Source: a virus | Taxonomy: Duplodnaviria > Caudoviricetes | Length of the DNA stretch: 64,000 bases | IMG/VR virus record: IMGVR_UViG_3300037634_004069 | Location: 14,763 to 78,762 of that record | Strand: one strand, 5' to 3' | The notes under the pieces: model-generated | Database searches by the model: none | What the model was told of the DNA's origin: nothing | The model's input: only the letters and a program-made list of their open reading frames with translations | Position numbers and translations under genes: made by a program | Part shown: positions 14,550 to 53,931 of the stretch, piece by piece | Layout: every line of letters begins with the position of its first letter | Position numbering within the stretch: the stretch's first letter is position 1

Positions 14550-14978
14550 ATGGAGACATTAACAAAAGTAACAGGGGAAGGGACTGATCAAAAAACAGTT
14601 CAAAATTATGTAGACCTACTATCAGGACATTACAGTGTAGTAGATCTTCCAGGACTAAAGTTTGCAAAAAAGATTGCAGACAATATTGATGCAATGGAAG
14701 AGCGCCTTGCTCCTCTTAATGAAATTCTACAACCTACTAAAGAGTTTGAAGAGTTTGCAGAGAGAGTTAGAGAGGAAGCTGGAACCGATGCAGAAAAAAT
14801 AAAACTCTTAGAAGAAGAAAACAAAGAGTTGGTAGATCATAGAAAATCACAGTTAGAGACTGCGGAAGAAATGTTAAAAGAAAATATGAGTATAACCCTT
14901 CGAACTATTTATGAAGGAGAGCTCCCTAATAACATTTCTGCCAAGCAGATTAAAGCTCTTAAATCAATCTTAAAATAA
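14550..14978 (+). CDS. Hypothetical coiled-coil protein, possibly a fibre assembly chaperone
   Basis: Charged helical 142-aa ORF directly after the fibre gene. Confidence 0.4.
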   Translation: METLTKVTGEGTDQKTVQNYVDLLSGHYSVVDLPGLKFAKKIADNIDAMEERLAPLNEILQPTKEFEEFAERVREEAGTDAEKIKLLEEENKELVDHRKSQLETAEEMLKENMSITLRTIYEGELPNNISAKQIKALKSILK

Positions 14979-29043: not shown

Positions 29044-32000
29044 ATGTCAGATAGCAATTCCGATAATATCTTGAATAATTTATATGCAGATGAGACATTT
29101 AATGACTCTGCATTACCTTATACAGACCCTGAAGAAGAGAATGGAACAGACCCTGTAATATCTAATTTATATTCAGAAGATGAGCTTGTTTTAGAACAAA
29201 ATCCTTTAGATATTTTAAATATACAGTCTCAAGCAGATGCAACTTCTCCTGTAGAAACCCCAATAATAAATGTACCTGAAGAATTTGGATCGTCTCAATA
29301 TGATAAAAATGCTAGCCGAGCGTATCAACTTAATAACCTTGAAGAGTTAAGGGGTAGAAATCAAACCGGATGGGATAAGTTCGGAAACTTTGTACCAAGA
29401 TTTATCGGGGGTGTAGGTACAAATGTAGTAGGAGGTCTAGGCGGTGTAGGTTATGGGATATTAAAAACTATGTACAAAGCAGCTGAAGCTCCTTTTACAG
29501 ATAAAGACGATTCTGCAGCAGAAATAGTAAGAAACATTTGGGATAATGAACTCTTTGATGGATTAGATTATATTAATGAGGAATTATCTGAAAACCTTCC
29601 TTTCTATTACACACAACAAGAAAAAGAAGCAAGCCTGTTTGGTCAAATGGCCTATGGTAATTTCTGGGCAGATAAGTTTGCAAATGGGCTTACTTTTATT
29701 ACAGGTGCGGTTTTAACTGAGCTTGCAGCAGTAGGTCTTGGTGGTCTTATAGGTAGTGTTGTACCAGGAGCAGGTACTGTAGCAGTAGGAGGCGCCGCAG
29801 CAGCAGGTAATGCAATGCGTTTAACACGTCAAGCAACTAAGATATTTAAAAATATAGGGAGGGCAACTGTACCTAGAAAAGTAATAGAGGCAGGAAAAAA
29901 AGTTGCTCAAAGTAGAAAGACTCTTGATGCTTTAAAAATAGGGAGACAGATGATGACTGGTGCGGGGTACGAGGCATCTATTGAAGCTAAACACGGATAC
30001 GATGTAGCTTTAAATACTCTATTAACAGAAAACTTTGGAGATAGAATAGCTTTAGGGGAGCAAGAGGCTGGAAGAGCTTTAACTATAGAGGAAAAAGGAA
30101 ATCTTTTAACTCCTCAAGAAAGAGCAGAGATATTTGAAACTGCCGCTTCTATATCAAACTTCCAATTTGCAGGTAACTTGCTTCTTGTAGGAGTGGGTAA
30201 TATGATAACCTTACCGGGGCTTTACGGAGCTGGAGTAATGAGTCGTATGAATAAATCTGCAGCAAAAAGTAGCTTATATACAAAAGCTAAGGATGCCCTT
30301 GGATTTTCTGGAGTACCTAAAAGAGATGTACTTCATAAAGCTTTAGGTAAAGCAGGACTTGGAGATAAAGGTATTACAATTACTAGAGGACTTGGATCTT
30401 GGCTAAAAAGATCTCTTTATGAAGGTTTTGTAGAAGAAGGTGGTCAGGGAGTAATGGCTCGAGCATCAGAAGACTACGCTCTTAGAAGTCGTATGGGAGA
30501 TAATGGTACTTTACAACTTATAGGGGAGTGGCATGATGCTTTTGCTAGAGGTTTTGATGAGTCTTATGGTTCTAAAGAGGGTCAAACAGAAATTCTTATA
30601 GGTGCTTTAGCAGCTGCACTTGGTATGCCTGGTCAAGGAGGTAAAGCAGGATGGTACAAAGGTATAGCGTGGACAGGAGATCTTGCATCTCAATCTACTA
30701 AGATGGAAGGTATTCAAGAGTTTGAAGCTGTAAATAAAAAGTTTGCAGATGAATACGCAAGAATAAAAAAGGCAAATCCTTCTCTTGGAGCTAAAATGGA
30801 GCAAACTGCATGGATGATGATGCAGGTAGCTAAAACTAAAGAAGGTCTTGATACAGCAATTGAAAACGGAGATGTAAAAAAAGCTAAAGATTTTGAGTAC
30901 GACAAGTTCTGGGAGTCTGTAATGCTAGCTATAGATAGTAATGATTTTGAATCTTTAGAAACTAAGATCGAGACGGACTTATCAGAGATATCTGATGAAG
31001 CTTTGAAAGAGATGTATAGCTATGAAGATGATATGACAAAAGAAGCTCTTGCTGAAAGGAGAGCATACTTAGCTACCACTATTAAACAAAAGCTTAAAAC
31101 AATAAAAGAAAGCCAAGAGCTTGTAGATTCAGGGTTAAGATTAAATGATATGGATAAGGTTATAGGGCTTGGTAAACCAGGTTCTATGGCGGCTGTTCGT
31201 AGAGAGCTTATACACTATGCTTCTAAGATGGACGAGAATGTTCGTAGAGAAGAGGCTATGATATCAAAACTTGCAGAAATTACTGGAGGTAAAGTGGTAT
31301 CTATAAGTAATGAAATAAGCAGTATTGAATACCAAAACACTGACGGTACTAAAAGAGTACTTCAGATAGGTGCTATGAATGTAGGTAGCACTGTATTTGA
31401 ACACATAGTTGAGTCTAGAAGAAGAATTGAAGACTTAGAGGCCAAAGGAGGAAGTCGTACACAAGTAGAAAACGAGCAACTAAAAGACCTTAAAAACTAC
31501 ATAACAGAGCTTGAAAAAATAGAAGACCAGTCTAAACCGGTATACAATCTTTTACAGGAAGCAGGCAGCGTAACTAATGATGAGCAAGTAGCTGCTTGGG
31601 AAAAAGAATTTCCAGAACAATCTGCTAAACACAAAAAAGAAGTTCATAAAATGATGAAAGATATCCGTGCACTTAGGGCGGATAGAATTGACTTCGCTCA
31701 AAAGTATCAAATGCTTATAGACCCTTCTTTAAGAGAAAAGTACAATAAGCAGATGGAAGCTTCTGCAAATGATCTTAAAAAGAAGATAAAGCAAGAAACA
31801 GAGAAGTTTGAGAAAGAACAAACTAAATCTGAAAAGAGAGTAAAGAAATTTAAAAAGGTAATTGACTATTATAAGCATGAGCTTCTAGAGAGAATGCAAG
31901 AGCTAAATGATGAGCTTACTACAAAACAAGAAAGCCTTCAAGAAGCTATTGAGATTTTAACAGGTATGAAATCTTATGTAGAAAAGCTTAAGAAAAAACC

Positions 32001-35000
32001 TCACCAAAAAAAGTTTAAATACAACAACAAGTTCATTACAAGAGATCAGCTAATTAAAGAAATAGCAACAGCAAAAGAGCTTGTAGATACGGCAGAGAAA
32101 GAGTACACCACATTTGTAAAGGTGACTTATCCTGAACAGCACAGGACAATACATGAGAATATTCAGATTCTAGACATGTTCATGAAAAATGAGCTTGATC
32201 CAGATATGATGCCTCATGAGTTTGAAGAAATCCATGAAGTTCTTTTGAGAAGAGCAGAAAAAGAAGGGTTTACAGCAACGGACTTTGGTGTGCAGTCAGT
32301 AGCTGCAAATCTTATTAAAGACCATGAAAAGTCTATAGAGGATCTTGAAGCTTATAAGAAAGACCTTAAAGCTCATATAGGCGCTCTTAAAAGGGTAATA
32401 AATATTGCAGAGAGTATTGTAGAGGCCAATCCTGGTGTAGAAGTATTTGATGTAGAGGGTAAATGGAAAGATAAATCCTCTCAAGTAAATAAAGTACCTG
32501 TTGAAGCTATTCAAATGGCAATAGACAAACAGGTTGCAGAACTCAAAGAAGTAAATAAAGATATAAAAGAGCTCAAAAAGAATATAAAAGATGTCCAAAA
32601 AACCTACTCTGGATTAAGGCAGATACAGGTGTTTAGGGATCTTTTACGTAGGGTTCCTCTTGCTAAAGAATGGAAGAAAAGAGAAGAGATAGATTATGAC
32701 TCTTTAGAAAATGATTTTACTTCTATGGAGAAAGAGGATGACTTATATAAGCCAGATATTTCTATGCCTGGCTTACATAAAACATCAGGAGCTCATATAG
32801 GATTTAAAATAGACCAAACTGTCTATGAAAAAAGTTTAGAGATCTATCAAAGATTAACAGAGTTACAAGAAAAGAAAAAGAAAAAAGGTAAAGAGCTTAA
32901 TAAAAAGCAACTTAATGAGCTTAAGACCGCTACTAGCCAACTCAATTGGTTTCAGTATATACAAAAAGACAATAAGAATATACTAGGAAGAACTACAGAT
33001 AAAAAAGACAATAATATAAGTTCGAAATATTTTCTAGCATTTATATCTGAAGACACAGTTGTACCTGAAGATGTTGCCAAAGACTTAGAGGGTACATGGT
33101 ATCACCAGAATAATAAGGATGCTAAGTACAAGGATATAAAAGTAGCTCTTGTAAGAAAAGTTATAAATAAAACAACTGGTAGAACATCAATACAGTTTGT
33201 AAGAGACGGGGAGACAAAAGGAGTAGTCTTTACTTCTATTGAAGATCCAACTGTAAAAAATAAAAGAGGGGAGAGCAAGTTCACAAACAAGAAAGATAAC
33301 CTTTCTAAAAGTGAAATAGAGGACATACAAAGAGATTATAATGATAACATAAGGAAAAAAGTAAATAGTACAAATTCACTTATGATAGCTCCAATAACTG
33401 GTAAATCTCCTGGTACTATACTCCTTGATAGAGGTGAAGTAAACTATGCCTCTGACACTATAATGAGTACTAATCTTGAAAATGTAAAAATAGCAATAGG
33501 AAAAGTAATTAAGAATGAAGACCCAGAAGCAGAAGGAGAGTATAAATATGATACTATTAAGTTTGTTAAGAATGCAAACTCTGTTATGGTACGTCCTGGT
33601 CAAATAGTTGCTTATGACCACGTTAGGCACATGCCTATATTTATGAGGAGATCAGAGCTAGGAGAAGAAAGGGCTATTCAAGTACAAAGACTTTTTAGGG
33701 TATTACTAAAAGAATTTGCTGCAGCTAAAGAAAGTGGTAAGTCTAATATAGAGGCTTTAAAACAAGCAGAAAGATTCTCTCTTGAATACGGTGGAGAGAG
33801 TATAACGCTAAGGGCTCAGATTAGATCTATGGTGCATATTTTAAATGCCGAAGATTCTAAATTTCGATTAGCTTACAGGCTAAAAGATAATGACCTTGTA
33901 ATTTACTTCAAAGAAATGGATGAGTATGCCACTCTTGAAGATATAGAGGACAATACTGAAAAAGGAGAAGAGCTTTTAGAGTTTCTTAAAACTAAAAGAC
34001 ATAATGTTCGAGGAACCCTTTTAGAAAATAGTGTTAAAAGAGTAGAGTTTAGTGGGAAAAACAAGAGAACTAACAAACCATATAGTGCTAAAGGAGAGAA
34101 GTATGTAAATAACGCCAAATCAAAATACATAAACGTAGTACTTAATAAGGATTTAACGGTTTCTCAATCTAAATCTACAGAGCATGCTAATTACAATCAC
34201 TTCTTACTTAGTAAAAACACATCCGGAGAGGCTCCTTTATACACAGAAGCTAGACCTTTAAAAGAAGTTTCTTTTACAAACCCTAGAGCAGGGGGAGGGT
34301 ATCTTGTGTATGGCAAAACTCTTATGTCCACTGCAAAATTTGATATAGAAGATCAAGCTGCTCCTGGCGGAAAAGCTGTTTTTTCAAATATAGAGGGTGA
34401 AGATGAGTTTGATCCTGATGATTTTAGCGACGATGTAGGAGGAGATCCTACTGCAGGAAGTTCTTCTGAGTTAGAAGCTTTAGAAAACGCATTAGGGCTT
34501 GACCCAGAGGTTGAAGATGATGTTGTTCCAACAGGGGATCCAGAAGTAGATCCAACAGGAGACCCAGAGGATTTGCCTCCAGGGCTAGCAGACGCACCTT
34601 ATATAAAACAGGATGACTTAGAAAGTATTAAAGCTAAGAAAGCAGCTAAGAAAAAAGCTAAGAAAGAAGCTGAAGAAGCAGCTAAAAAAGAAGCAGAAAT
34701 TGATCCTAGTTCGGAGGTAGAAGGACTTTTTGAAGGTCTTTCTGGTACAGGTACTCTAGAGACAACTCATAAGGGGTTGGGATACACTGACACATTTAAA
34801 GCAGAAGATATTTGGGCAGAAGATCAAGATGGAATTTATAAAGTAACTGTTGGGGGAGGAGATTCTTTGGGGTATTATAACCCATCAGATGGAAGCTTTA
34901 AAACTAGTTCTAGCTTTGATTTTGATTCTGACACCCTTGTATCATGGATGGATAAAACAATAGATGAAGCTGAAGAAGATGAAGCACCTTTTATGCTTGA

Positions 35001-38000
35001 ATCTCAAACTAAAGCATTAGAAGAACTTCTTTCAAGTTACTCTAAAGACACTCAGACAGAAATACAAAGAGCTCTTAAAATGACCTCTTTAGAAATAGCA
35101 ACTTCTGAGGCAGTGCTTGATTCATTAGATGGTAGAGCAGTGGCTCAATTAGTGTCTTTTGGTAAAGTTGTATTAAGTGAACTAGCACCTTCTGGAGCTA
35201 TATTCCACGAAGCTTTTCATAATGTATCTCTATATGTGTTGTCCCCTAAAGATTCTAAAACACTCTATAAGAAGATACGAGAAATACCTGGAGAGACTGT
35301 AACTTATAAAGGGAAGACAAAGAAAATGTCTGACCTTACAAACAAGGAGGCAGAAGAATGGGCGGCTGAAGAGTTCCGTAAGTATATTCTTATGGGTAAA
35401 GACTACAAGTTTGGAGAAGGAACAGTTACAGATACACGTAATATAATTCAGAAATTCTTCGATGCTATTAAGTCTGTACTTAGAAGACTGTTTAGATTAA
35501 ATGAAAACTTTGAATTTGATTCCTCTATAACATCTATAGAAGGTCTGTTTGAATCTATAGACAAAGGTAAGTTTGCTAAAGCAAAAAGACATCAAGGAAG
35601 ATCAGACGCCGGGGTATATAACATGCTTCAAAGCATAGAAGGTTGGAATGATGTTTATACTAATGATATGATATCTAGTATATCAGTAGAGTTAGGTGGA
35701 CTTATAGATAAGCCTTTTAGATATGGTGGAAAAACTTATAAAGTAGAGCTTGGTGAATTGTATACAGGAGATATTTTTAATACTCCAGTAGGCAAAAAGA
35801 GTTTAAATGCTTTGTACTTAAAAGGCATTTCAAACTTGCGGGAAAAGCTAATAACGTTAGAAAACGAGCTTGACAGATTTAGTGAAAGAAAGCCTGCAGT
35901 AACTGAAACTTTAGATAGAATCGGTAGATCTTCTAATGAGAAAAAAGAAACTGTAAAACAAGCTATACGTGCTCATTATGGGTACTTAACTGATATTGGA
36001 TTAGTAAAAGAAGAGGGTGTAGAAGTAGATGAAGAGACTCTTACCTCAAAAGACTGGGTGGATGAGTTAGATGCTTTAACTATATCTCCATCTAAAAGCG
36101 CTTCAGGATTGATCAAACTGATTTTTAGCATGTTTGAAGATCCTAATACTGTTAATAGTACAGGTCTTACAGGGGCATATAATATGTCTACCACTTTAAA
36201 GTCTGCACAGAACCTTCTTGCAGGCAGTACAAGTTTTGCAAATCAAATTAAAAAGCTTAAGCAGAATAAAGAGAAGTTTCCTTGGGCAGCGGATCTTGTA
36301 AAAAGACTAGATATAGATCCTGAAGGTAAAACTTACTCTCAGATAGCACCTAGAATTGCTTTTGCTGTGCACATGGCACAAGTAAAGTTAGATGTGTCTA
36401 TTTCTTCAGTAGAACCTAATGGTCGTATATATACAATGGATCCCGCAAAAGAAGGGGCTCTAAAAAAGATTTCTTATAACTGGACTTCTAGACTTAAAAA
36501 CTTTGGGGCTCAGACAAATAAAAAGTCTAACCATGTAACTTTAGACAAAGACGGTAAAATTCTAATAAATAAAAAAGCAAAATTCAATTTTGTATCTCCA
36601 AAAGGAACACTCATAGAAACTACTATGACAGGGCTTTTTAACAGAGCAAAAAAATCTAATGATGTAGCTACTATAATAGCTCTATACAAACCTTTAGGGA
36701 TAGAGTTTACAGATCCAAAAGCAGTAGAAGAAATATTTACTTTTAATGAAGATGTAGAGAGAGCAGCTTTAGAAAAACGTTTTCCAAATGCGTTTGAAGA
36801 CGAGATTGTTGAGATGCTAGACGAAAAAGAAGAAGAGATAACTCAAGCTTTCTTAGGATTTAAAAAAGACCAAGAATGGATTATTGATGATATCATATCT
36901 AGAAAAGAATCTTTTGCTACAATATTTTCAAGAGATAAGTCTGGAGCTGTTACTAGAGCAAGAGCACTTGCAGATATAGAGTTAACGACAGGAAATAATG
37001 ATGTAGAGTTCCAGTACTTGAATAGTGAGGGTAATATGGAATACTCTATTATAAGAAATCATTACATATCTGCTCTTACAAACTTTGAATACATTGATCT
37101 TGTAGAATACTTTAATCCTGTTTCAAATCCTTTTGCTGCTAATTCTTTAGCGGTCGAAGCTTGGAGAGGAGGAAGTAAGATAGATATTATAAATATGGGT
37201 GGGCTAAGAGCCGACTTATTGGGTGAAATGGGTCAAAAAATATCTAGATTGGCCTCAAACGATGTGGTTACAATGCATTTAAATGCAATCTTAGATGGTA
37301 TATCTATCCTTCCAAGAGCAGCAGACCAAGTAACAGAGTTTGGAATCCGGTTACCTATAGAAATGCCTACCAGAATAAGACAGGGAATGGGTATTTTCTT
37401 AAACTACCTCAAAGATGAAATTGCTGCAACTGCAATTGGAATTGAGGCAGGTAAGAACATTTCAAAGTACAAAGACAACATTAAGAAGTTAAGATTCTTT
37501 GACAGTATCCTTACAGATTCTAGAGGAATAGTTCAAGATTTATTAAGTACTCCAAGACTATTAAAACAGATTCGTAAAGAGATTATGTTTTCAAGTAAAA
37601 AATCTACTTCAGAAATACCTGGAGAAAGCGATTACTTAGAGGCATTTATGATTGAGAATGCAGATGCTTTTGTAAAAGATATAACTGCAAGACTGAATGT
37701 TGATATCGCAAAATTAGATTCATTTTTAGTTGAAAGGGGCCTTTTACAAGAAACAAATGAATCTGGTACTCGAGTACCGTATGCTTTAAGTAGTGAGTTG
37801 TTTCAAGAAGATGCTAATGAGGATCCAGACTTCTCTGATAAAAACATTAATGCTGTTTTAGAAGAGATTGTAGTAAAGCAGTTTATAGGTAAGACTGAGA
37901 CATTTAAAATGTTCTTAGGTGATCCTGCTTTTTATTCTGATATGTTTAAAAGAATTAAAGGTGCTGTAGGTACAAAAACTCTTATGGATCTTAGCCCGGA

Positions 38001-41000
38001 GATTTTAAAGTGGATAGATGATACTCCAGGCCTTCATAGAGCAGATGGAAAGATTGATCTGATAGCTATAAAAGAACCTATGGCTAGAATGTCTGAGGAA
38101 ATTATAGAGATGTACAGTGGTCAAGTAACTCCAGATGTACTTGAACAGTGGAAGAAACCTATAGAAAAAGCTGACGGAGCTTTGTATGTGGACCTTCCTA
38201 CGTACAGACTATTAAAAATAACTTCTGATCAGTGGGATAATAATAGAGAGAGCCAATTCTCTAAATCTATGGGGAATATATCTTCTTCATACGAGGAAGT
38301 AGAAGGAGCTACATTCCCACCAGATAAGTTTCAGTATATGGGTCCTTTTTTAACAGACCTTGGTCCGGCAATGGGATTCCTTAAAATGGCTATTATTCCT
38401 ATATCTAGAGATATGGAGAGCTTTAATGGGGTTGAGTATCCTAACATAAAAAAGGCTCTTGACTATATGGAAGAGAATGGAGTTGGTGGGTTTGTTATAC
38501 CAACAGGAATGAAGATAGGAGGAGCTATAGAAACATCTCAAGTATCTTATGGTATTGAAAATGGGGCTTACGAAGAAATGGAATTTGAAGATCCTGTAAA
38601 AGGATCAAGAATGACTTTTGATCTTAGGTTTATGGGGTCTCAATTAGAAATATCACCATCATTTAAGAATAAAGCTACACGACCTACACAGCAAGCAGTT
38701 CATATATCTTCTGACTTATATGAAGATGGGGTTGCTGTTAGCGAGGAAGCTCTAGAAAAAGACTCCGAGTATCAAAGTCTTATGTCTGCAGCTACTAAGA
38801 ATGCTTTTACAGATATGTTAGAAGAACTATCTATAGAAAAAACTACTGATAAAAACGGTGTAGAAGGATATGGTTTATCTGAAGAATCTTATGAGCTTAT
38901 ACTTGATAAACTAGAAAACCAGGGAATAGAAAAAGATCTTGGTAAATCTATCATGTCTGGAGTATCTTATCTAAAAGAAAAAGGAGGAGCATTTAAATTC
39001 GATTTCTTTGTAGATAGACATAGAATGGAATCTATGTTCCTTAGTGGTATAGGTTCACAAATCATCAAGCCTAAAGTAGCTGGGGAGATGCTTGTAAACA
39101 CACCTGATTTATTTTATGAAGTAAGAAAAATAGGTGATACAATTGCTAGTAACGAGTTGCAGTTTTACGAAAACTCTGATGGTAGATGGGCAATGCAAGT
39201 AAGAATGCCTCACCGGTTTAAAGAGTTATTAGGTAAAAATGTAAAAATTGTAAATGGAACAATATTAGGTGAAGGTATAACTGTACAAAGTTCAGAAGAA
39301 CTTTTAAAAATGATTGGTATACGTATTCCTACAGACGGTATACACTCTGTAGAAGTAATAGAGATAGTAGAGTTCTTACCACAATCTGCAGGACCAAGGA
39401 TTAATGTACCGGCAGGTCTTGTAACTAAAGCAGGTTCTGATTTTGATATTGATAAATTAACTGCACTATTTAAAAATTACAGGGCTTATACAGATGAGAA
39501 AACAGGTGGTGTAATTCTAAGACCAGATAAGTTTTACAATACAGAGGAAGAGTGGTTTGAAGCTAACCAGCGAAGGGTGGCAAACAAACTCAAAGACTTT
39601 GAAGCAATATTTAAAAGAGGATTTGAAAGAAAACTTAAAGATGAGAAAGAGCTTAATGACTTTCTTGCTAAGTTTAAAGATGACCCTCTTCTTGCAAAAG
39701 AGTTTACAGACTTCTTAGAAAGAGATCTAGATATGGACATGGAGAGCTTGTCTTTAGAAAGAAATCTTACAAAAGAAGAAGCTCAGGAAATGTGGGATGG
39801 TATACTTGAGTCTGCAGAAGAGTTCTTTAATATAACATATACTGTTGACCCTACAACTGATGTTACTGAGCAAGAATTTTACGAAAATTTACCTAGAATA
39901 ACTCAAGATTCTAACTCTTATTATAGAGGAACAATTATATCCCCAACTATTGATGCAGAGGGTAATTTAATTATAAAAGGTAGAAAAGATCGTTTGTACG
40001 AAAAAGCAAATTTACCTTCTTACGGAGTCTCTATGGGAGATCGTATGAACACTAGCAAAGAGTATGGAGAAGGTCAATTTAAAAGACGCCTTCAAGAACT
40101 TCGAGATGAATATAATGAGCAAGCTGCAGATGAGTTAGAATATGGAAGTGGCTATTATTTAATACAGGTAGATAAAAGTAAAATAGATAATGAAATCATT
40201 GAAGAGGCGGGAGAAGTAAAAGTTCTAGGAGATTTAAAAATTCCTAAAGGAGCATACAAAATAGAGCTTATTAATCCTGAAGAAAACAAAAGGATTCAGG
40301 ATGTTGAACCTATTGAAAGTGCTGAGGGAATGGAAGAGTTTGGATATGGATTCTTATATGATCTTTTTAACCTTACTCAACCTACAACTGAGGTTACTGA
40401 AGGTGTCTCTGAAGTATTTGAGTCTAATCCTGAACTAGCTAATGTAGGAACAGAACAACAATATTCTGAGTACTTAGATAGTATAGGTGTTACAGAAATA
40501 GCGCACCATCATTCTGAATCAAGTATAGAAGAGTTTAAGACATTTCCTGAAGGGTATTTTCCCAATGAACTAAAGAAAAAAGGAACTCACTATAAGGAGG
40601 CTGATGATGTAGTATTTTTTGTTAAAGAAAAACTTACTGAAGAGTTTATGTCTAAACGACCCAAAGTTGGTACGTGGGGGCTAAAAGCTTCTAATATATT
40701 ACAGTTTAATGGAGGACAGAAGGTAGGAGATGGAGCACATCCTGGAATAGACGAAGGAGTTAAAAAAGGCATAGATGAAGGATATGATGCTGTTGATTTT
40801 GGTAGAATAAGAGACAACAAAACTTGGAGCGAAGTAATTGCTATATTTAATCCTAGAAATGCAGTTAAACTAGGTAGTAAACAAGATATACAAGGATTTA
40901 AAGATTTTGTATCTAAAAAAGGAACAACTAAGGTTGCAGCACTAAATATATCTCCTAAATTATTTACAGATTGGAAAGCCGAAAATCCAACTCTTACTAA

Positions 41001-43134
41001 GTACGATCTTAATACTAAACAAGCCATTCATAATAAAACCTTAGACGTAGTAGAGGATCTACTAAGTATGAAAGGAAGAGAGAAAGAGTTTCTTCGTCCT
41101 GTAAATACAAACAGTTATGAGGGTTTAGCGGAAGAGATTCAAGGGTTGTATGAGGATAAAGGCAATGAAGAGCTTCCGGATTTACAGATTGTAAAAGATT
41201 ATCATGAGGAAACTACACTCCCGCATATTTTTAAAGTTACAGATGCAGTTTTTTCAGGAGCAAAGGATGTAGGGATAGTGGCTCTTGCATCTACACACCA
41301 AGTAAAAGGACAAAAAGCTAACTTAAGATTAGATCTTAGTAAGTCAATGAAACTTGCAAATGGAAAGTTTTTAAACTCTTTAGGGATATATTTTAATTAT
41401 GATGAGTTTAAAAAAGAAAAAGATTCCGAAGGAGAGTTTATAGGGGATTCTACAATTTCTTTAGCTAGAATGTCAGACGTTTTAAATAATAGAAGAGTTA
41501 CAGATAGTATATCTCAGTTTGTAAACTTAGCAGTTGATACAGTAAACACTCCTGTTATACACATTCTAAACCTTGGGCCAGAACTAGCTCCAGCTGCACT
41601 TGTATTATTAAGAGCAGGTGTTCCTTTGGAAAGTATAGTTTATTTTATGAATCAGCCTATTGTAAGAGATTACATAGAAAACAGACAAATAGCATCAAGT
41701 AGAGTTTACCAGGCACTTGGGAAAGAAGAATATCCAGCTCAAACAATTACTAAACTAAGAAAAGCGTACAAAACTGATAGTGATATTTCGTCCCCAGAAA
41801 ACAAACCTTACTTATCTGATAAAGAACTTAAGCAGATGATTGGGGGTATAGAAGCCCCTACTAAAGAGGGTGACTTAAGTATAGAAGACCAAAATGCATA
41901 TCAATTGCATATACTAGATGATTTGTTAATGTACTTAGAGCTTGGAGATAGAATGACAACCGTTATAGCCGCACAATCTTATGATACAAAGCTTCCTAAG
42001 ACCCGTGCTGCAATGGCTTTAACTAACAGGGCTTACGAAAAAGTAATGGCTGAGGGTATCTTCCCTAACGCAGAAAAAATAACAGAGGGAGAAAATAGTT
42101 TCCTTAAAGAAATGCGTAACTACACTTTAGTAGCATCTGAAGTATTTGGAGATTTGTTTGTAAACAACAATCAAATAAAAAGCTTCAACGACGCTTATGC
42201 AATGAAAGTTGAAGAACTTACACATACAGAAAATAGACAGCCTTTAGATATTAAAGTAAAGTCTTTAGAAAGATTGGAGCAGTTTTTTACATCTCTTATA
42301 CTTCAGAGAGTTCCAAACGAAGATGGCATAGCTATAAATGATAGGTCTCAAACTTTATTGTTTGGAGAAAAAAGTGCAGCTGTAACTGTTTCAAAGATTA
42401 TAAACTCCCCTAAACACCCACTACGAAACAACGTATTCTTAAACTCTCTTTTACCTGTAGTACAGGAAGAAAGAAAGTCTGTGAAGGGAAAAATGGTGGA
42501 AAATGATTTTATACAACCTGAGTTTAAAGCTGTCAATATTTATGATATGGCTGCAATGTATGATTCATACCAAGAGATTGTAGCATACGATGCTAAAAAG
42601 AACACCACTTTAGCAAAAGATCTTTTCGATGTAGCTATTTTGCAAGCAGGTACTATGAATACTCCGTATTCTTTCTTAGATAAACTGCCTGGAGATCAAT
42701 TTGCAGAGATATCTTCTAAATTGTATAATAGATACCTTAAGACTCCTAATGCTTTAAAGTTCTCTTCTGAACTACTGTTAAGTTTATTCCATGCAAACAT
42801 GTTGAAATTTCCAAACATGGTAGAGTTTACTAAGCCTCAATCTCCTAAGAACATGAGGTTAATGTATGCTAAAAGATACTTAGATCTGCAACAAGACAGA
42901 GAGTTTGGTATGGGTAGAAAACAAAGAGATATAGCACTCTATCAAAATCTTATCTTTACACGAGATTTAATTACAGGAAAAATTAATTCTGGTGAAAGCA
43001 CTGGTGTAGTAAGAATTGAAACTACAGGATACGACTCAATGTCTTATTTGAATACTAAGTCTGACTTTATAACGTACAACAAAAAAGTTGAATCTTCAGA
43101 AACAGATCCAATTGATCCTACAGAATGCCCTTAA
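29044..43134 (+). CDS. Giant virion RNA polymerase polyprotein (ejection-type N-terminus, zincin protease, two-barrel RNAP with inserted ART-like domains)
   Basis: 4696 aa; RIP....S...GSDFDIDK with DFDID at 39439-39453 (DxDxD motif of crAss-like RNAPs); HEAFH at 35206-35220 plus EEWAAEEF; N-terminal hydrophobic hairpins. Confidence 0.88.
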   Translation: MSDSNSDNILNNLYADETFNDSALPYTDPEEENGTDPVISNLYSEDELVLEQNPLDILNIQSQADATSPVETPIINVPEEFGSSQYDKNASRAYQLNNLEELRGRNQTGWDKFGNFVPRFIGGVGTNVVGGLGGVGYGILKTMYKAAEAPFTDKDDSAAEIVRNIWDNELFDGLDYINEELSENLPFYYTQQEKEASLFGQMAYGNFWADKFANGLTFITGAVLTELAAVGLGGLIGSVVPGAGTVAVGGAAAAGNAMRLTRQATKIFKNIGRATVPRKVIEAGKKVAQSRKTLDALKIGRQMMTGAGYEASIEAKHGYDVALNTLLTENFGDRIALGEQEAGRALTIEEKGNLLTPQERAEIFETAASISNFQFAGNLLLVGVGNMITLPGLYGAGVMSRMNKSAAKSSLYTKAKDALGFSGVPKRDVLHKALGKAGLGDKGITITRGLGSWLKRSLYEGFVEEGGQGVMARASEDYALRSRMGDNGTLQLIGEWHDAFARGFDESYGSKEGQTEILIGALAAALGMPGQGGKAGWYKGIAWTGDLASQSTKMEGIQEFEAVNKKFADEYARIKKANPSLGAKMEQTAWMMMQVAKTKEGLDTAIENGDVKKAKDFEYDKFWESVMLAIDSNDFESLETKIETDLSEISDEALKEMYSYEDDMTKEALAERRAYLATTIKQKLKTIKESQELVDSGLRLNDMDKVIGLGKPGSMAAVRRELIHYASKMDENVRREEAMISKLAEITGGKVVSISNEISSIEYQNTDGTKRVLQIGAMNVGSTVFEHIVESRRRIEDLEAKGGSRTQVENEQLKDLKNYITELEKIEDQSKPVYNLLQEAGSVTNDEQVAAWEKEFPEQSAKHKKEVHKMMKDIRALRADRIDFAQKYQMLIDPSLREKYNKQMEASANDLKKKIKQETEKFEKEQTKSEKRVKKFKKVIDYYKHELLERMQELNDELTTKQESLQEAIEILTGMKSYVEKLKKKPHQKKFKYNNKFITRDQLIKEIATAKELVDTAEKEYTTFVKVTYPEQHRTIHENIQILDMFMKNELDPDMMPHEFEEIHEVLLRRAEKEGFTATDFGVQSVAANLIKDHEKSIEDLEAYKKDLKAHIGALKRVINIAESIVEANPGVEVFDVEGKWKDKSSQVNKVPVEAIQMAIDKQVAELKEVNKDIKELKKNIKDVQKTYSGLRQIQVFRDLLRRVPLAKEWKKREEIDYDSLENDFTSMEKEDDLYKPDISMPGLHKTSGAHIGFKIDQTVYEKSLEIYQRLTELQEKKKKKGKELNKKQLNELKTATSQLNWFQYIQKDNKNILGRTTDKKDNNISSKYFLAFISEDTVVPEDVAKDLEGTWYHQNNKDAKYKDIKVALVRKVINKTTGRTSIQFVRDGETKGVVFTSIEDPTVKNKRGESKFTNKKDNLSKSEIEDIQRDYNDNIRKKVNSTNSLMIAPITGKSPGTILLDRGEVNYASDTIMSTNLENVKIAIGKVIKNEDPEAEGEYKYDTIKFVKNANSVMVRPGQIVAYDHVRHMPIFMRRSELGEERAIQVQRLFRVLLKEFAAAKESGKSNIEALKQAERFSLEYGGESITLRAQIRSMVHILNAEDSKFRLAYRLKDNDLVIYFKEMDEYATLEDIEDNTEKGEELLEFLKTKRHNVRGTLLENSVKRVEFSGKNKRTNKPYSAKGEKYVNNAKSKYINVVLNKDLTVSQSKSTEHANYNHFLLSKNTSGEAPLYTEARPLKEVSFTNPRAGGGYLVYGKTLMSTAKFDIEDQAAPGGKAVFSNIEGEDEFDPDDFSDDVGGDPTAGSSSELEALENALGLDPEVEDDVVPTGDPEVDPTGDPEDLPPGLADAPYIKQDDLESIKAKKAAKKKAKKEAEEAAKKEAEIDPSSEVEGLFEGLSGTGTLETTHKGLGYTDTFKAEDIWAEDQDGIYKVTVGGGDSLGYYNPSDGSFKTSSSFDFDSDTLVSWMDKTIDEAEEDEAPFMLESQTKALEELLSSYSKDTQTEIQRALKMTSLEIATSEAVLDSLDGRAVAQLVSFGKVVLSELAPSGAIFHEAFHNVSLYVLSPKDSKTLYKKIREIPGETVTYKGKTKKMSDLTNKEAEEWAAEEFRKYILMGKDYKFGEGTVTDTRNIIQKFFDAIKSVLRRLFRLNENFEFDSSITSIEGLFESIDKGKFAKAKRHQGRSDAGVYNMLQSIEGWNDVYTNDMISSISVELGGLIDKPFRYGGKTYKVELGELYTGDIFNTPVGKKSLNALYLKGISNLREKLITLENELDRFSERKPAVTETLDRIGRSSNEKKETVKQAIRAHYGYLTDIGLVKEEGVEVDEETLTSKDWVDELDALTISPSKSASGLIKLIFSMFEDPNTVNSTGLTGAYNMSTTLKSAQNLLAGSTSFANQIKKLKQNKEKFPWAADLVKRLDIDPEGKTYSQIAPRIAFAVHMAQVKLDVSISSVEPNGRIYTMDPAKEGALKKISYNWTSRLKNFGAQTNKKSNHVTLDKDGKILINKKAKFNFVSPKGTLIETTMTGLFNRAKKSNDVATIIALYKPLGIEFTDPKAVEEIFTFNEDVERAALEKRFPNAFEDEIVEMLDEKEEEITQAFLGFKKDQEWIIDDIISRKESFATIFSRDKSGAVTRARALADIELTTGNNDVEFQYLNSEGNMEYSIIRNHYISALTNFEYIDLVEYFNPVSNPFAANSLAVEAWRGGSKIDIINMGGLRADLLGEMGQKISRLASNDVVTMHLNAILDGISILPRAADQVTEFGIRLPIEMPTRIRQGMGIFLNYLKDEIAATAIGIEAGKNISKYKDNIKKLRFFDSILTDSRGIVQDLLSTPRLLKQIRKEIMFSSKKSTSEIPGESDYLEAFMIENADAFVKDITARLNVDIAKLDSFLVERGLLQETNESGTRVPYALSSELFQEDANEDPDFSDKNINAVLEEIVVKQFIGKTETFKMFLGDPAFYSDMFKRIKGAVGTKTLMDLSPEILKWIDDTPGLHRADGKIDLIAIKEPMARMSEEIIEMYSGQVTPDVLEQWKKPIEKADGALYVDLPTYRLLKITSDQWDNNRESQFSKSMGNISSSYEEVEGATFPPDKFQYMGPFLTDLGPAMGFLKMAIIPISRDMESFNGVEYPNIKKALDYMEENGVGGFVIPTGMKIGGAIETSQVSYGIENGAYEEMEFEDPVKGSRMTFDLRFMGSQLEISPSFKNKATRPTQQAVHISSDLYEDGVAVSEEALEKDSEYQSLMSAATKNAFTDMLEELSIEKTTDKNGVEGYGLSEESYELILDKLENQGIEKDLGKSIMSGVSYLKEKGGAFKFDFFVDRHRMESMFLSGIGSQIIKPKVAGEMLVNTPDLFYEVRKIGDTIASNELQFYENSDGRWAMQVRMPHRFKELLGKNVKIVNGTILGEGITVQSSEELLKMIGIRIPTDGIHSVEVIEIVEFLPQSAGPRINVPAGLVTKAGSDFDIDKLTALFKNYRAYTDEKTGGVILRPDKFYNTEEEWFEANQRRVANKLKDFEAIFKRGFERKLKDEKELNDFLAKFKDDPLLAKEFTDFLERDLDMDMESLSLERNLTKEEAQEMWDGILESAEEFFNITYTVDPTTDVTEQEFYENLPRITQDSNSYYRGTIISPTIDAEGNLIIKGRKDRLYEKANLPSYGVSMGDRMNTSKEYGEGQFKRRLQELRDEYNEQAADELEYGSGYYLIQVDKSKIDNEIIEEAGEVKVLGDLKIPKGAYKIELINPEENKRIQDVEPIESAEGMEEFGYGFLYDLFNLTQPTTEVTEGVSEVFESNPELANVGTEQQYSEYLDSIGVTEIAHHHSESSIEEFKTFPEGYFPNELKKKGTHYKEADDVVFFVKEKLTEEFMSKRPKVGTWGLKASNILQFNGGQKVGDGAHPGIDEGVKKGIDEGYDAVDFGRIRDNKTWSEVIAIFNPRNAVKLGSKQDIQGFKDFVSKKGTTKVAALNISPKLFTDWKAENPTLTKYDLNTKQAIHNKTLDVVEDLLSMKGREKEFLRPVNTNSYEGLAEEIQGLYEDKGNEELPDLQIVKDYHEETTLPHIFKVTDAVFSGAKDVGIVALASTHQVKGQKANLRLDLSKSMKLANGKFLNSLGIYFNYDEFKKEKDSEGEFIGDSTISLARMSDVLNNRRVTDSISQFVNLAVDTVNTPVIHILNLGPELAPAALVLLRAGVPLESIVYFMNQPIVRDYIENRQIASSRVYQALGKEEYPAQTITKLRKAYKTDSDISSPENKPYLSDKELKQMIGGIEAPTKEGDLSIEDQNAYQLHILDDLLMYLELGDRMTTVIAAQSYDTKLPKTRAAMALTNRAYEKVMAEGIFPNAEKITEGENSFLKEMRNYTLVASEVFGDLFVNNNQIKSFNDAYAMKVEELTHTENRQPLDIKVKSLERLEQFFTSLILQRVPNEDGIAINDRSQTLLFGEKSAAVTVSKIINSPKHPLRNNVFLNSLLPVVQEERKSVKGKMVENDFIQPEFKAVNIYDMAAMYDSYQEIVAYDAKKNTTLAKDLFDVAILQAGTMNTPYSFLDKLPGDQFAEISSKLYNRYLKTPNALKFSSELLLSLFHANMLKFPNMVEFTKPQSPKNMRLMYAKRYLDLQQDREFGMGRKQRDIALYQNLIFTRDLITGKINSGESTGVVRIETTGYDSMSYLNTKSDFITYNKKVESSETDPIDPTECP

Positions 43135-48330: not shown

Positions 48331-49086
48331 TTAAATGTCATAAATTGTAGGGTCGTATATTTCTTGTGTCATATTAGGTATACTATAAAGCTCTGCAGAT
48401 TTTTCAATAGTTACATCTGGCCCTAAAGCCGTCTCTAACTGCTTTCTGCGAGAAGCAGCTTTATACAGTATTTTACCAAGAGTAGAGTCTTTAGTAAATC
48501 CATGGAATCTAAGTATTTTCAACTTATACTTGCTGTCAAACTTAGAATACCTGCCTGCTAAAAACAAATTGAACTCTTTTTTATACTTTTCAGGGACATT
48601 AAAAATGTACAAAGTAGTTTTATTACTTATGTCAATACACTCAATAAAATTATCCAAACCCTTTAAATAGTGTTCGAAATCTACAAACTCTTTCTTACCA
48701 GAAAATCTGTATAAAAGAGCTATTACATTTTTATGTTCCTCAGTACCTACAAAACAATTTAATAAAAGGTTGTCATAAAAATAGTTTTTACGATTACCAG
48801 ATAACATTGGAAGAATAAACAAAGAAGCCTTTGTTCTTCTTGCCATTGTCATCTCATATGAAGTATTGTTTTCAGGTCCTGCAGAGGTTATCATGTTTAT
48901 TTTATAAGGGAATTTAGATCTCCCTATAGTAAGAGTTTTACCTAAAGTTATTTTAGGAACTTCAGGAAGTTCTACTGCAGTAATGTTTCCATCACCATCA
49001 AACTCCACTTCAACACCAATATAACCAACAGCTTTAACTGTAAGAGAATCTTTTATTTGTATTCCTTTTCTACTTCTTCCGGACAT
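48331..49086 (-). CDS. Hypothetical protein of the replication module
   Basis: 251-aa ORF (TKASLFILPML...LLN...Y); tightly packed; start uncertain. Confidence 0.55.
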   Translation of the reverse strand: MSGRSRKGIQIKDSLTVKAVGYIGVEVEFDGDGNITAVELPEVPKITLGKTLTIGRSKFPYKINMITSAGPENNTSYEMTMARRTKASLFILPMLSGNRKNYFYDNLLLNCFVGTEEHKNVIALLYRFSGKKEFVDFEHYLKGLDNFIECIDISNKTTLYIFNVPEKYKKEFNLFLAGRYSKFDSKYKLKILRFHGFTKDSTLGKILYKAASRRKQLETALGPDVTIEKSAELYSIPNMTQEIYDPTIYDI

Positions 49087-49919
49087 TTACCTAGTTTTTT
49101 AAGAATATTAAAATACTTTAATGGGGGTAAAGAAATACCCAATCTATCTAAATCATAAGAAGATCTAAGAACATATACAAGGTCCAAAGTCTCTTTAAAT
49201 TTATCTGTAGCTTCTTTAGAAGACGCAATATCGCTCTCTTCCATCTGCTGAAGATACATTTTTAAGATTTTTAAAGAAAAGTCTTCCTCTACAATACCGT
49301 CTAAAGCTTTCTCTGCACGTTTTACACCTATACCAGGAATACCAGGAATACCATCAACACTATCACCCGCAGCACACTGAATCCATAGAAACTTTGCTGC
49401 ATCTTCATCTGTTGTAGATACAAACTCGTTTCTTTGATAATTGTAATGAGTACCGGGTATCTGTCTAAGAACATCCTTATCTGGACTGCAAATAACAGAC
49501 TCTATAAAAGGATTATTACCTAGGCCATTAGCATATATTGCAACTGCATCATCTGCTTCGATCCTAGGAATATCATAAAACCCCCACTCTCGTTGAGCAT
49601 ATACACGTAGAGCATAGAATAAGAAAGGGGTCTCCCTACCTTTTCTATTGCCTTTATACTCCCTTGTCTTACCAAACTCTTTTCTAAAAACAGTTTTAGA
49701 GTTTGTAGTAAAAGGTGTGAAGTACTTGCATTTCAATTCTGACAATACATTTATAATGAAGTTGTCAAGCTTTAGCTTCATTTCATCAAACGTAGTATCT
49801 TCTTTCATGCAGTAATAAAGCATACTATCAGCATCTATAAGTGCAATTTTACTTTGATCGTTATTGAATGGAGTAAGGTCTAAATCGTCTACTAAATCAT
49901 TTTTTATAATTTCTAACAT
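49053..49919 (-). CDS. 5'-3' exonuclease / flap endonuclease (PolI N-terminal or T7 gp6-like)
   Basis: LIDADS, EADDAVA, SPDKD.LRQIPG and GDSVDGIPGIPGIG.K.A (H3TH) motifs. Confidence 0.9.
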   Translation of the reverse strand: MLEIIKNDLVDDLDLTPFNNDQSKIALIDADSMLYYCMKEDTTFDEMKLKLDNFIINVLSELKCKYFTPFTTNSKTVFRKEFGKTREYKGNRKGRETPFLFYALRVYAQREWGFYDIPRIEADDAVAIYANGLGNNPFIESVICSPDKDVLRQIPGTHYNYQRNEFVSTTDEDAAKFLWIQCAAGDSVDGIPGIPGIGVKRAEKALDGIVEEDFSLKILKMYLQQMEESDIASSKEATDKFKETLDLVYVLRSSYDLDRLGISLPPLKYFNILKKLGKCPEEVEKEYK

Positions 49920-51204: not shown

Positions 51205-53931
51205 TTATTGTAATGAGGATAGGAAAGATTTGTTATCCCACTCCCATTGATCACGATTGTACAGTTTAATGTACTTTGCAATCTCTTCTGCAGAGTCATC
51301 TTGCATAAACGTAGTTGTAGGTAAATCCTTAAATAAAGGATCAAGCGTTTTAGCATAAGAATTAAGCTCTTCATGCAGACTTAGAATCTCAAGATCAGCT
51401 ACATTAGCTCCTACGATATCAGTAAAAACAAAGGTTTCAAAGCTCTTCTGAGCTATCTTCTTGTCTCTATCCTCATCTTCGGAGTCAATGTTTGCACAAA
51501 ACACCTGAAACTCATACAACTCATCCATTCTATCCCAAATAGGGTGGTCTAAAGCAGTTTTAATTGCCCATAAGAAGTTATCGTACTCACATAGATACTC
51601 TCGTAACTTTCTAGCCTTACTTGATATCTTATTATCAATCTTATCAAAAGATCTTAGATAAGCATCGAAGAAAGGAAAAGTAGTACCTATTTTACGAATA
51701 GTATAAGCACGTCTAACCATAGGATGAGTCTCAATTGTATTATAAGTTGTCCTAAAGAAGAAAAAGTTCTCTATGTGAGATAGAGAGGAATTAGCTTTCT
51801 CTATTCTTTTTATCGCAGTACTACTTAATTTAATCAATTGAGGATAATTAGTATCATCTACATAGTCTCCTCCATCCCTAAGAGCATAACTATAACGTAT
51901 AGAAGGGCTAAGTGTAAACAAAGCTCTAGGGTTCTGACCCCAATGGTTATAATTGTTAATCACAGGAGCAGAAGGATACAATATACCTGCAGCAAGAACA
52001 AGAGATTCCTCATCTTCTTTACCACCATAATACACTTCCCCATCTGTAGTTATAAGATCTATGCCTTTTGGCTCAACCTTATCCCATGTCCATGTCTTAC
52101 GAGAAGTACTTCTATGCGCATCAGGATCATACCTTAGAGTAAAACCTACCTCTTTGTTCTCAAGAAGGCGTTGCTCTGCAGGAGTCAATGCATCCTCTGT
52201 AACCTCAATCTCTTTAGCTTTGTTAAGGAAATCTTCAGAGACTTCTAACTCACTATAGGACTGCACCCTAGAATCATTTGATATAAACTCTACTAATGCC
52301 TCATACTTAAGCTTTTGCTCACCTATAAGATCAGATAAACTATCCGCAAGTTCTTTTACAGACTCATCTTTAGATTCTGGGTCAGTCCACTCCTTTATGA
52401 TGATAGAAGTAAAACTTCCTTTATTAAGTCCTTTGCATATATACATATCCTTTACAGGGCTATACACAGTGTCCTTAATATAGATAGTGTCAAAGTTAAA
52501 AGTATTCCAATTTGTAATTGGGTCTCTTTTCACCTTACCTCTATAGTCTATAGTAACCTTATCTATCTTAATCCTATCTGTAAAGAAATTACTTATAGGT
52601 AGATACTTTATCTTAGAGTCACCAGAGAACACAGGAGATAAGTCATCACTATTAATGATGTTAGACATCCTATGAATAATATCATCAGAGTTATTCCTAT
52701 GAAAGATTTTAGCACACTGCTCAAGCCATTCAAAGATATCAGTTGAGTTCTGAAGCTTATCCTCTACAAGTTGAGATGCCTCTTCTGTAGCTTTCTCTAT
52801 AACAGACAAGATATAAGCCTTAGTAGCGTCATTCCAGATAACTTTCTCACGAGACGGAGTAACACTTACACCATCTTGCATGACAATCTCTTTGCCTGAC
52901 TCATCACGATACGTCTGACGCATAGGACATTTAAACCCTACAGACCCATACATATCCTGTAACTCCAACTCACGGAAGTCTACATAACCATAGTTAATAC
53001 CTGATTCATCTGCAGGATCCTTCACAATAACTATGTGAGGTCTGTTGAATACAGTACCATTACTGATTATAAGAGACTCAGAGTTGTATACTACTTCAGC
53101 CTTAGTAGACTTATTCCTATACTCATACTCCTTGTCACCCTCTATTTCTTTGATAGTAAAATTTACACCATCAATATAGATTAGTTGCTGGTCAACAGCA
53201 TCCCGGAAAGAATATCTATTGTGCTTTTTAACACCAAAACTTACAATAGTATTATTCTTCTCGTCTGTCTTCTCATAGTATACTTTAGTACCATCACTGA
53301 ATGTTATAAAATCATTCATAGTACCATCTTTAGAGAACTTAGAGATGACAAACTCAGTACGATATGGATAACAAACACATTTAAATCTTCTACCTTTATG
53401 TACAGTTTCCACTGTGTACATAGCAACACCTGTAGAGAATGCAACCTTTGCACCCAGACCGAAAGCACCAAAGCCCTCTGAGGTATTACGCTTAGTAGAA
53501 TAGCCAAGACTTAGGATGCCTTCGAGTCTTTTATCTCCAAGGCCTACACCATAATCTTGTACTTTAAATGTATCACAGAATCCTGCACCTTCTTCTTGTA
53601 TGTAGGTAAGCTCAACTGTGTTGTTCTCTGCATCAAGATACTTTAGGTCATAATACGAAGCATCAAAATTGCTATCTTCATACTGTTCCCCATGTCTCTC
53701 GATATAATAATCCTCAGCTTTGGCTTTGCCTGTGAGGACCTCAATTGCTACCTCTTTCTCCCTCTGAGAATCCCACGCATTTGTGGTTAACTCTCGTACA
53801 GAAGACTTAATAGGAGTAGAATATTGAGTCTGTTGCAAGATATCATACACAAGCTTTTCAGCTCCTGCATCAATCTTCTTTTCGACACCTTTAGTTCCGG
53901 TGTCTTGACGTTCAATAGTTTTTATACTCAT
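51205..53931 (-). CDS. rIIA: rIIA-like protein with N-terminal GHKL (HSP90-type) ATPase
   Basis: YS.PI.S.VREL.TNAWDS, DYGVGL and YSTKR...GAFGLG.K motifs; paired with rIIB. Confidence 0.8.
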   Translation of the reverse strand: MSIKTIERQDTGTKGVEKKIDAGAEKLVYDILQQTQYSTPIKSSVRELTTNAWDSQREKEVAIEVLTGKAKAEDYYIERHGEQYEDSNFDASYYDLKYLDAENNTVELTYIQEEGAGFCDTFKVQDYGVGLGDKRLEGILSLGYSTKRNTSEGFGAFGLGAKVAFSTGVAMYTVETVHKGRRFKCVCYPYRTEFVISKFSKDGTMNDFITFSDGTKVYYEKTDEKNNTIVSFGVKKHNRYSFRDAVDQQLIYIDGVNFTIKEIEGDKEYEYRNKSTKAEVVYNSESLIISNGTVFNRPHIVIVKDPADESGINYGYVDFRELELQDMYGSVGFKCPMRQTYRDESGKEIVMQDGVSVTPSREKVIWNDATKAYILSVIEKATEEASQLVEDKLQNSTDIFEWLEQCAKIFHRNNSDDIIHRMSNIINSDDLSPVFSGDSKIKYLPISNFFTDRIKIDKVTIDYRGKVKRDPITNWNTFNFDTIYIKDTVYSPVKDMYICKGLNKGSFTSIIIKEWTDPESKDESVKELADSLSDLIGEQKLKYEALVEFISNDSRVQSYSELEVSEDFLNKAKEIEVTEDALTPAEQRLLENKEVGFTLRYDPDAHRSTSRKTWTWDKVEPKGIDLITTDGEVYYGGKEDEESLVLAAGILYPSAPVINNYNHWGQNPRALFTLSPSIRYSYALRDGGDYVDDTNYPQLIKLSSTAIKRIEKANSSLSHIENFFFFRTTYNTIETHPMVRRAYTIRKIGTTFPFFDAYLRSFDKIDNKISSKARKLREYLCEYDNFLWAIKTALDHPIWDRMDELYEFQVFCANIDSEDEDRDKKIAQKSFETFVFTDIVGANVADLEILSLHEELNSYAKTLDPLFKDLPTTTFMQDDSAEEIAKYIKLYNRDQWEWDNKSFLSSLQ

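Follow-up and report, generated by a model that had tools for sequence, protein, structure and literature searches.

The 64,000-nucleotide (nt) stretch analysed here (the window; positions 14,763 to 78,762 of IMG/VR virus record IMGVR_UViG_3300037634_004069) raises the question of what is encoded by a segment that interrupts the polymerase module of a giant phage protein, and what such a segment could do for the phage. The window is part of a 78.8-kb record with a completeness estimate of 91%, and the protein in question, P0001, is encoded by an open reading frame (ORF) at 29044..43134 (+ strand), a single open frame of 4696 amino acids (aa) on translation. We propose that this segment, an insertion of ~375 aa in a crAss-like virion RNA polymerase (vRNAP), contains two predicted nicotinamide adenine dinucleotide (NAD)-using ADP-ribosyltransferases (ARTs), probably for early reprogramming or disarming of the host. 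A preliminary description of this locus had placed one ART-like domain, of the Arg-Ser-Glu (R-S-E) type, behind the DFDID loop of the polymerase; a second ART, of the His-Tyr-Asp (H-Y-D) type, was absent from that account. The two are referred to below as domain A (R-S-E) and domain B (H-Y-D).

The catalytic double-psi beta-barrel segment of P0001 is located at 39295..39501 (+ strand), with DFDID at nt 39439-39453 (aa 3466). A phmmer search of the PDB with the DFDID sub-region matched residues 1327-1395 (chain numbering) of 6VR4 chain A, phi14:2 gp66, at E=6e-7; a sub-region query was needed for this match, as gp66 was missed with whole P0001 as the query. In addition, tblastn matched 99 crAss-like phage records at identities of at most ~31%, in regions mostly annotated "putative RNA polymerase". 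Because of these two lines of evidence, we read P0001 as a very divergent crAss-like virion polymerase that forms part of a larger polyvalent protein.

When aa 3400-4100 were compared by BLASTP with 25 homologous giant proteins, two conserved blocks were identified (aa ~3400-3600 and ~3965-4100) that are contiguous in homologues. A MAFFT alignment presented a clean gap opposite aa ~3600-3975 in P0002, P0008, P0010, P0013, P0007, and P0016, and in these six homologues "...EEFFN" runs directly into "...SPKLF..W..ENP"; P0002, the closest homologue, contains no counterpart of the insertion despite flanks that are 68-86% identical. The insertion defined by the BLASTP segment map and the alignment (aa ~3600-3975; 39841..40968, + strand) starts ~135 aa past DFDID. 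Thus, the earlier proposal of an internal insertion was borne out by all six homologues; the motifs lie about 135-160 aa after the catalytic loop (about 140 aa in that proposal), and the segment is absent from homologues rather than aligned to their polymerase core. Polymerase-like sequence had been said to resume at ~40990; it does resume after the insertion, with a start slightly earlier, at about nt 40951-40969 (SPKLF). The block that follows (40969..41343, + strand) is conserved in all aligned homologues, includes the motifs KQAIHNK (aa 3992, nt 41017) and LRPVN (aa 4017), and gave no match in the PDB with phmmer. In gp66 (PDB 6VR4), DFDID is found at 1361 and the bridge helix at 1529-1559, i.e., 168-198 aa after DFDID; judged from this spacing, a counterpart of the bridge helix may be part of the block after the insertion (KQAIHNKTLDVVEDLL). 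We interpret the insertion as a two-cassette unit (domains A and B) in a variable linker of the polymerase module, just before the next conserved block. Among the homologues compared, only P0001 presented an insertion at this site, and the site was thus rejected as a general insertion hot spot.

Domain A (aa 3618-3743; 39895..40272, + strand), defined by an AlphaFold2 model, its structural neighbours, and invariant residues, contains all motifs listed in the preliminary description, each where that description had placed it in this ORF: YYRG (aa 3626, nt 39919), GVSM (aa 3661, nt 40024), the EYG helix (EYGEG, aa 3673), YYLIQVD (aa 3704), and EEAGEVKV (aa 3720, nt 40201), to which LGDLKIP (aa 3728) can be added. 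The candidate catalytic residues are R3628 (nt 39925-39927), S3663 (nt 40030-40032), and E3724 (nt 40213-40215), all on the + strand. A full HMMER scan of 1.84 billion representatives identified the module in 55 representative clusters (43 at E<=1e-10), with matches that always span query residues ~14-139; the motif set is thus not a chance occurrence. Across 50 full-length copies, which are 28-50% identical to the window query, seven residues were 100% conserved (R3628, G3629, G3640, L3642, G3661, S3663, and E3724), and the family presents the signature [YF]-Y-R-G-Q … G-[VI]-S-[ML]-[TS] … G-Y-Y-L-I-Q … E-A-G-E-V-K.

The AlphaFold2 model of domain A, built from a 21-sequence alignment, had a predicted local distance difference test score (pLDDT) of 83.3 and a predicted template modelling score of 0.76. 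In this model, strand 1 carries R3628, strand 2 carries S3663 and leads into a long helix, and strand 5 begins with E3724; the modelled domain has the split beta-sheet ART/NAD-binding fold. Of the 50 structural neighbours listed, essentially all are members of the ART superfamily (VIA-align; two hit lists were uniform in this respect). The longest structural alignments were with the pertussis, cholera, and heat-labile enterotoxin (LT) toxins (98-114 residues, 14-17% identity), and the alignment ranges, as opposed to a residue-level alignment, place R3628 on the catalytic Arg of these toxins (pertussis R9, cholera/LT R7) and of scabin (R77). Foldseek matches were weak (E ~0.2 in the PDB, led by pertussis toxin S1 and Tpt1/KptA, and ~0.02 in BFVD) and enriched in ARTs; the ESM Atlas yielded clusters without a name (0.91-0.92) and one Tox-ART-HYD1 cluster (0.90), which we regard as a lead only. 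The predicted structure and the conservation pattern support domain A as a genuine ART fold with an invariant Arg/Ser/Glu set, in agreement with the fold proposed for it initially.

Several observations qualify this assignment. The second conserved Glu, E3721 (45/50 copies), is found at position -3 relative to the invariant E3724, and not at -2, where 34/50 copies have Ala (E-A-G-E), so that the classical [Q/E]-x-E motif is not matched exactly. The window copy deviates from its own family at two positions, with T3630 (39931-39933) where 46/50 copies have Gln, and G3665 (40036-40038) at the third S-x-S/T position, which is Thr or Ser in 48/50; these deviations may mean an altered or reduced activity of this copy. 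Finally, a Pfam search of 21 domain A members at E<=10 returned none of the ART profiles Enterotoxin_a, Pertussis_S1, ADPrib_exo_Tox, and ART. No ART family was found by Pfam and PHROGs searches of whole P0001 and of the insertion either (only phrog_32390 at aa 102-527 and one spurious weak match were returned), and the domain A alignment profile matched no PDB sequence. Of the features of the cholera/pertussis/scabin class suggested by the initial motif order, Arg on strand 1 and Ser on strand 2 followed by a helix are present, and the invariant Glu is located at the start of strand 5, with a second Glu at a different spacing. As for other R-S-E groups, no Alt, VIP2, iota, or C3 representative was present among the 50 listed structural neighbours, a result obtained with no direct profile comparison with T4 Alt/ModA, and membership of the modelled domain in the Alt/VIP2 clade is unsupported.

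Domain B (aa 3777-3964; 40372..40935, + strand; C-terminal end LGSKQDIQGFKDF) was identified by BLASTP, AlphaFold2, and structural neighbours. At the sequence level, this region (aa ~3770-3966) aligned at E 1e-13 to 1e-20 with four short proteins (P0089, P0090, P0092, and P0093) that match the ART-PolyVal family PF18760 (42.9 bits for P0090 and 48.5 bits for P0092; cut-off 31.2); the window copy itself presented no direct Pfam match. Its AlphaFold2 model (pLDDT 84.5) has NatT, MbcT, RES, ParT, PARPs, and diphtheria toxin as structural neighbours (VIA). ART-PolyVal enzymes carry His on strand 1, Tyr on strand 2, and Asp on strand 5 (PMC5512222). The candidate catalytic residues of domain B are H3822, on predicted strand 1, Y3838, within GYF, and D3915, within [YF]-D-[GAS] at a strand start; the strand-2 placement of Y3838 rests on the alignment, as DSSP assigned no strand there. 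We thus regard domain B as a divergent relative of the ART-PolyVal (PF18760, H-Y-D) family.

Domain A is not confined to this polymerase. At least seven further giant proteins with a DFDxD motif contain it, between aa ~290 and aa ~3300, and there it lies before, far before, or far after DFDxD; only in P0001 does it directly follow the catalytic loop. Among the 39 copies of domain A with at least 120 aa of downstream sequence, 13, including the window copy, have a B-type or Pfam-positive ART-PolyVal domain within the next 150 aa, and because of this proportion the A-B tandem is recurrent but not obligatory; domain B also occurs without domain A. A mere N-terminal extension of domain B was rejected as a description of domain A, since no downstream ART of the B/PolyVal type was detected for 26 of the 39 copies. 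The leader "…VTEGVSEVFESNPELA..GT.EQY..YL" and the tail "LGSKQDIxGFKxF" are near-identical between proteins whose ART cores share 30-38% identity, which suggests domain shuffling through recombination at conserved linkers. Within the window, a 20-nt direct repeat is present at the head of each cassette (copy 1 at 39850..39869, encoding PTTDVTE, and copy 2 at 40381..40400, encoding PTTEVTE; both on the + strand and 19/20 identical), i.e., two matches as compared to 0.05 expected by chance. Judged from its varied positions in giant proteins, domain A is best described as a mobile cassette.

Two further observations concern the cassettes. The leader of cassette A resembles a shortened leader of cassette B, without "GVSEVFESNPELANVGTE", which fits recombination at conserved linkers. 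In P0002 (aa ~3595-3605, compared with window positions 40900-40968), the junction reads "…EEFFNLG-KDFV-TPKLF", and its KDFV corresponds to the final residues of the cassette B tail (GFKDFV); this may represent a deletion scar left by loss of the cassettes in P0002, or a coincidence.

The distribution of domain A is narrow. Neither domain A nor domain B was matched by tblastn in GenBank phages (50,697 phage records for domain A). An alignment-based scan of 2.9 million IMG/VR contigs identified eight domain A loci, most of them on contigs between 20 and 115 kb; no match was obtained when IMG/VR was scanned with a single sequence. One locus was found among the representatives of 185,579 prokaryote species, on MOYB01000010.1 (27,194 bp), a contig of a metagenome-assembled genome of "Candidatus Caenarcanum bioreactoricola"; the IMG/VR viral contig UViG_2554235000_000001 agrees with it both in length and in the position of the match, and MOYB01000010.1 is probably a phage contig binned into this genome. 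With few exceptions, members of the domain A family were found within giant virion proteins of uncultured crAss-like phages. Relatives of P0001 carry other precomputed Pfam domains, namely PF06414 and PF13671 (P0004), PF25176 and PF00334 (P0005), PF11638 (P0006), PF12694 (P0006 and P0014), and PF08719 (P0025). We take these to include Zeta toxin, AAA_33, nucleoside-diphosphate kinase, and NADAR; the last assignment would hint at ADP-ribose chemistry elsewhere in the giant-protein family. These giant proteins appear, from their domain content, to be variable effector carriers.

For the role of the two ARTs, we favour the following sequence of events. [quoted passage not shown] With NAD+ of the host as substrate, both ARTs would then ADP-ribosylate macromolecules of the host, such as the transcription or translation machinery or defence proteins, and would act either tethered to the polymerase or after release by a zincin protease encoded in cis. 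This logic would parallel that of T4 Alt and of the ARTs in polyvalent vRNAPs of N4-like phages. Our analysis itself shows the fold, the triad and its conservation, the insertion, and the mobility of the cassettes; for catalysis, target, and delivery, we infer from gp66 and the polyvalent-protein literature.

One alternative, which we consider possible but rather doubtful, is that domain A is an active NAD-utilising enzyme that modifies something other than protein Arg, such as nucleic acid (as scabin/pierisin, DarT, or KptA) or a small molecule (as Arr), or that it hydrolyses NAD+. Tpt1/KptA was among the leading Foldseek matches, and the Tpt1/KptA match covers about two-thirds of domain A; as compared to the C-terminal NAD lobe of Tpt1/KptA, domain A is a single ~125-aa lobe without the N-terminal RNA-binding lobe, the R-H-R-R tetrad, or the invariant His, and it contains a single invariant Arg. 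The longest structural alignments are to pertussis, cholera, and LT toxins, all of which are protein-modifying, with the restriction that fold alone cannot assign a substrate. It is less likely, and in our view improbable, that domain A lacks catalytic activity and works as an ART-like adaptor or regulatory element for the H-Y-D ART behind it. VIP2, iota, and C2-I binary toxins have an inactive N-terminal ART-like domain of this kind, and the presence of a B/PolyVal-type ART within 150 aa downstream in 13/39 copies, the window copy included, the two deviating positions of the window copy, and the second Glu away from -2 would all be consistent with such a role. Yet full invariance of R, S, and E over 50 diverged copies would be unexpected for a pseudo-enzyme, the remaining 26 copies have no such ART detected within that distance, and domain B is also found without domain A.

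Two proposals in which the ARTs would act on the polymerase itself or on its substrates seem very unlikely to us. According to the first, the ART pair would act in cis, with auto-ADP-ribosylation of the polymerase, or of a cleft-blocking element, switching a self-inhibited packaged form on or off; gp66 was crystallised in a self-inhibited form whose activation mechanism is unknown, and the insertion is located within the catalytic module, close to the putative bridge helix. On the other hand, none of the other homologues compared, one of them 68-86% identical, has the insertion, and it thus cannot represent a general activation mechanism; the same cassettes are also found far from the polymerase module in other proteins. 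The second proposal, with a similarly slim chance, starts from the location of both ARTs within the catalytic module, adjacent to the putative bridge helix, and has them act on what the polymerase handles instead of on free proteins of the host: template DNA or the ends of nascent RNA might be ADP-ribosylated, or NAD-initiated transcripts might be coupled to host proteins in an RNAylation-like reaction. RNAylation has reportedly been found for T4 ModB; if the proposal were true, it would represent transcription-coupled NAD chemistry, which is not known for any RNA polymerase. A chance R/S/E pattern in a non-ART linker or polymerase domain, which the missing sequence-profile match to ART families and the Foldseek E-values of ~0.2 might suggest, is hardly credible given a uniform ART composition in two independent structural hit lists and an invariant triad in a module that is mobile and absent from polymerase homologues.

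The favoured reading, two ARTs delivered with the polymerase for use against the host, can be compared with several known systems. ARTs are the commonest modifying domain of polyvalent proteins (Iyer et al. 2017; PMC5512222), and ART-PolyVal and Tox-ART-HYD2 domains occur in polyvalent proteins of phages and conjugative elements, including one fused to the N4-like virion RNA polymerase of Roseovarius Plymouth podovirus 1 (PMC5512222). Like this fusion, P0001 combines an ART, a virion RNA polymerase, and a zincin-like peptidase in one giant polypeptide that is predicted to be injected; unlike it, P0001 has a polymerase of the two-barrel crAss type, not T7-like, and its ARTs are located inside the polymerase module, not beside it. 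Domain B is a sequence relative of ART-PolyVal, while domain A has R-S-E instead of H-Y-D and is not detected by PF18760. T4 Alt, an R-S-E enzyme of the Alt/VIP2 clade, is packaged in the head, injected, and ADP-ribosylates the alpha subunit of host RNA polymerase (PMC5512222). Domain A resembles Alt as an R-S-E-type phage ART with proposed delivery along with the DNA and a proposed part in early host takeover; in contrast to domain A, Alt is a separate protein. Cholera toxin, LT, pertussis S1, and scabin have catalytic domains much larger than domain A (~125 aa), in which E-A-G-E stands in place of [Q/E]-x-E; the Enterotoxin_a and Pertussis_S1 profiles do not match domain A, and its context is a phage virion protein. 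P0001 and phi14:2 gp66 share a homologous DFDID barrel segment and a position in a crAss-like virion block after the muzzle protein; however, gp66 has 2180 aa with no ART reported, while the 4696 aa of P0001 include an N-terminal extension, a zincin motif, and the two-ART insertion.

Injected ARTs are already known as a phage strategy (T4 Alt and ART-PolyVal in N4-like vRNAPs), and because the N4-like fusion has been described, so is the general principle of an ART delivered with a virion polymerase. In literature searches, no report was found in which a polymerase protein of crAss-like phages contains an ART. What is new here is a previously undetected R-S-E-type family, its tandem arrangement with an H-Y-D ART, and the predicted placement of both inside a two-barrel polymerase module. 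If correct, these results define an R-S-E-type ART family that is compact (~125 aa), escapes current profiles, and is shuffled as cassettes among giant virion proteins through conserved linkers, and a two-barrel RNA polymerase apparently tolerates 375 additional aa, with two enzymes, between the Mg loop and the conserved block that follows. Provided that they are active, the two domains would be candidate effectors with which Crassvirales, a group about whose early infection little is known, take over the host early or counter its defences.

The remaining features of P0001 and of the window provide context. P0001 is more than twice the size of gp66. Its N-terminal region (aa 102-527; 29347-30624, + strand) matches phrog_32390 (function unknown; E=2e-27) and is followed by a long coiled-coil Lys/Glu-rich stretch and then by a zincin-like metallopeptidase motif, HEAFH (HExxH; aa 2055-2059; 35206..35220, + strand); this putative peptidase was identified by its motif, and a Pfam search of P0001 gave no match over it. 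Metallopeptidases are typical partner domains within polyvalent proteins (PMC5512222). Upstream of the cargo and polymerase genes, a 1773-aa ORF (18210-23531, + strand) encodes a Crassvirus muzzle protein (PF25731, E=4e-50, plus the muzzle C-terminal domain), which confirms a Crassvirales virion-gene layout; the muzzle gene is followed by large + strand genes, the last of which is the 29044-43134 ORF. The virion genes are followed by a block on the opposite strand, which includes a FEN-like 5'-3' exonuclease gene (49053-49919, - strand; score below the Pfam gathering cut-off) and a gene encoding a GHKL ATPase domain (HATPase_c_3; 51205-53931, - strand) that may represent a topoisomerase or a MutL-like protein of the replication module.
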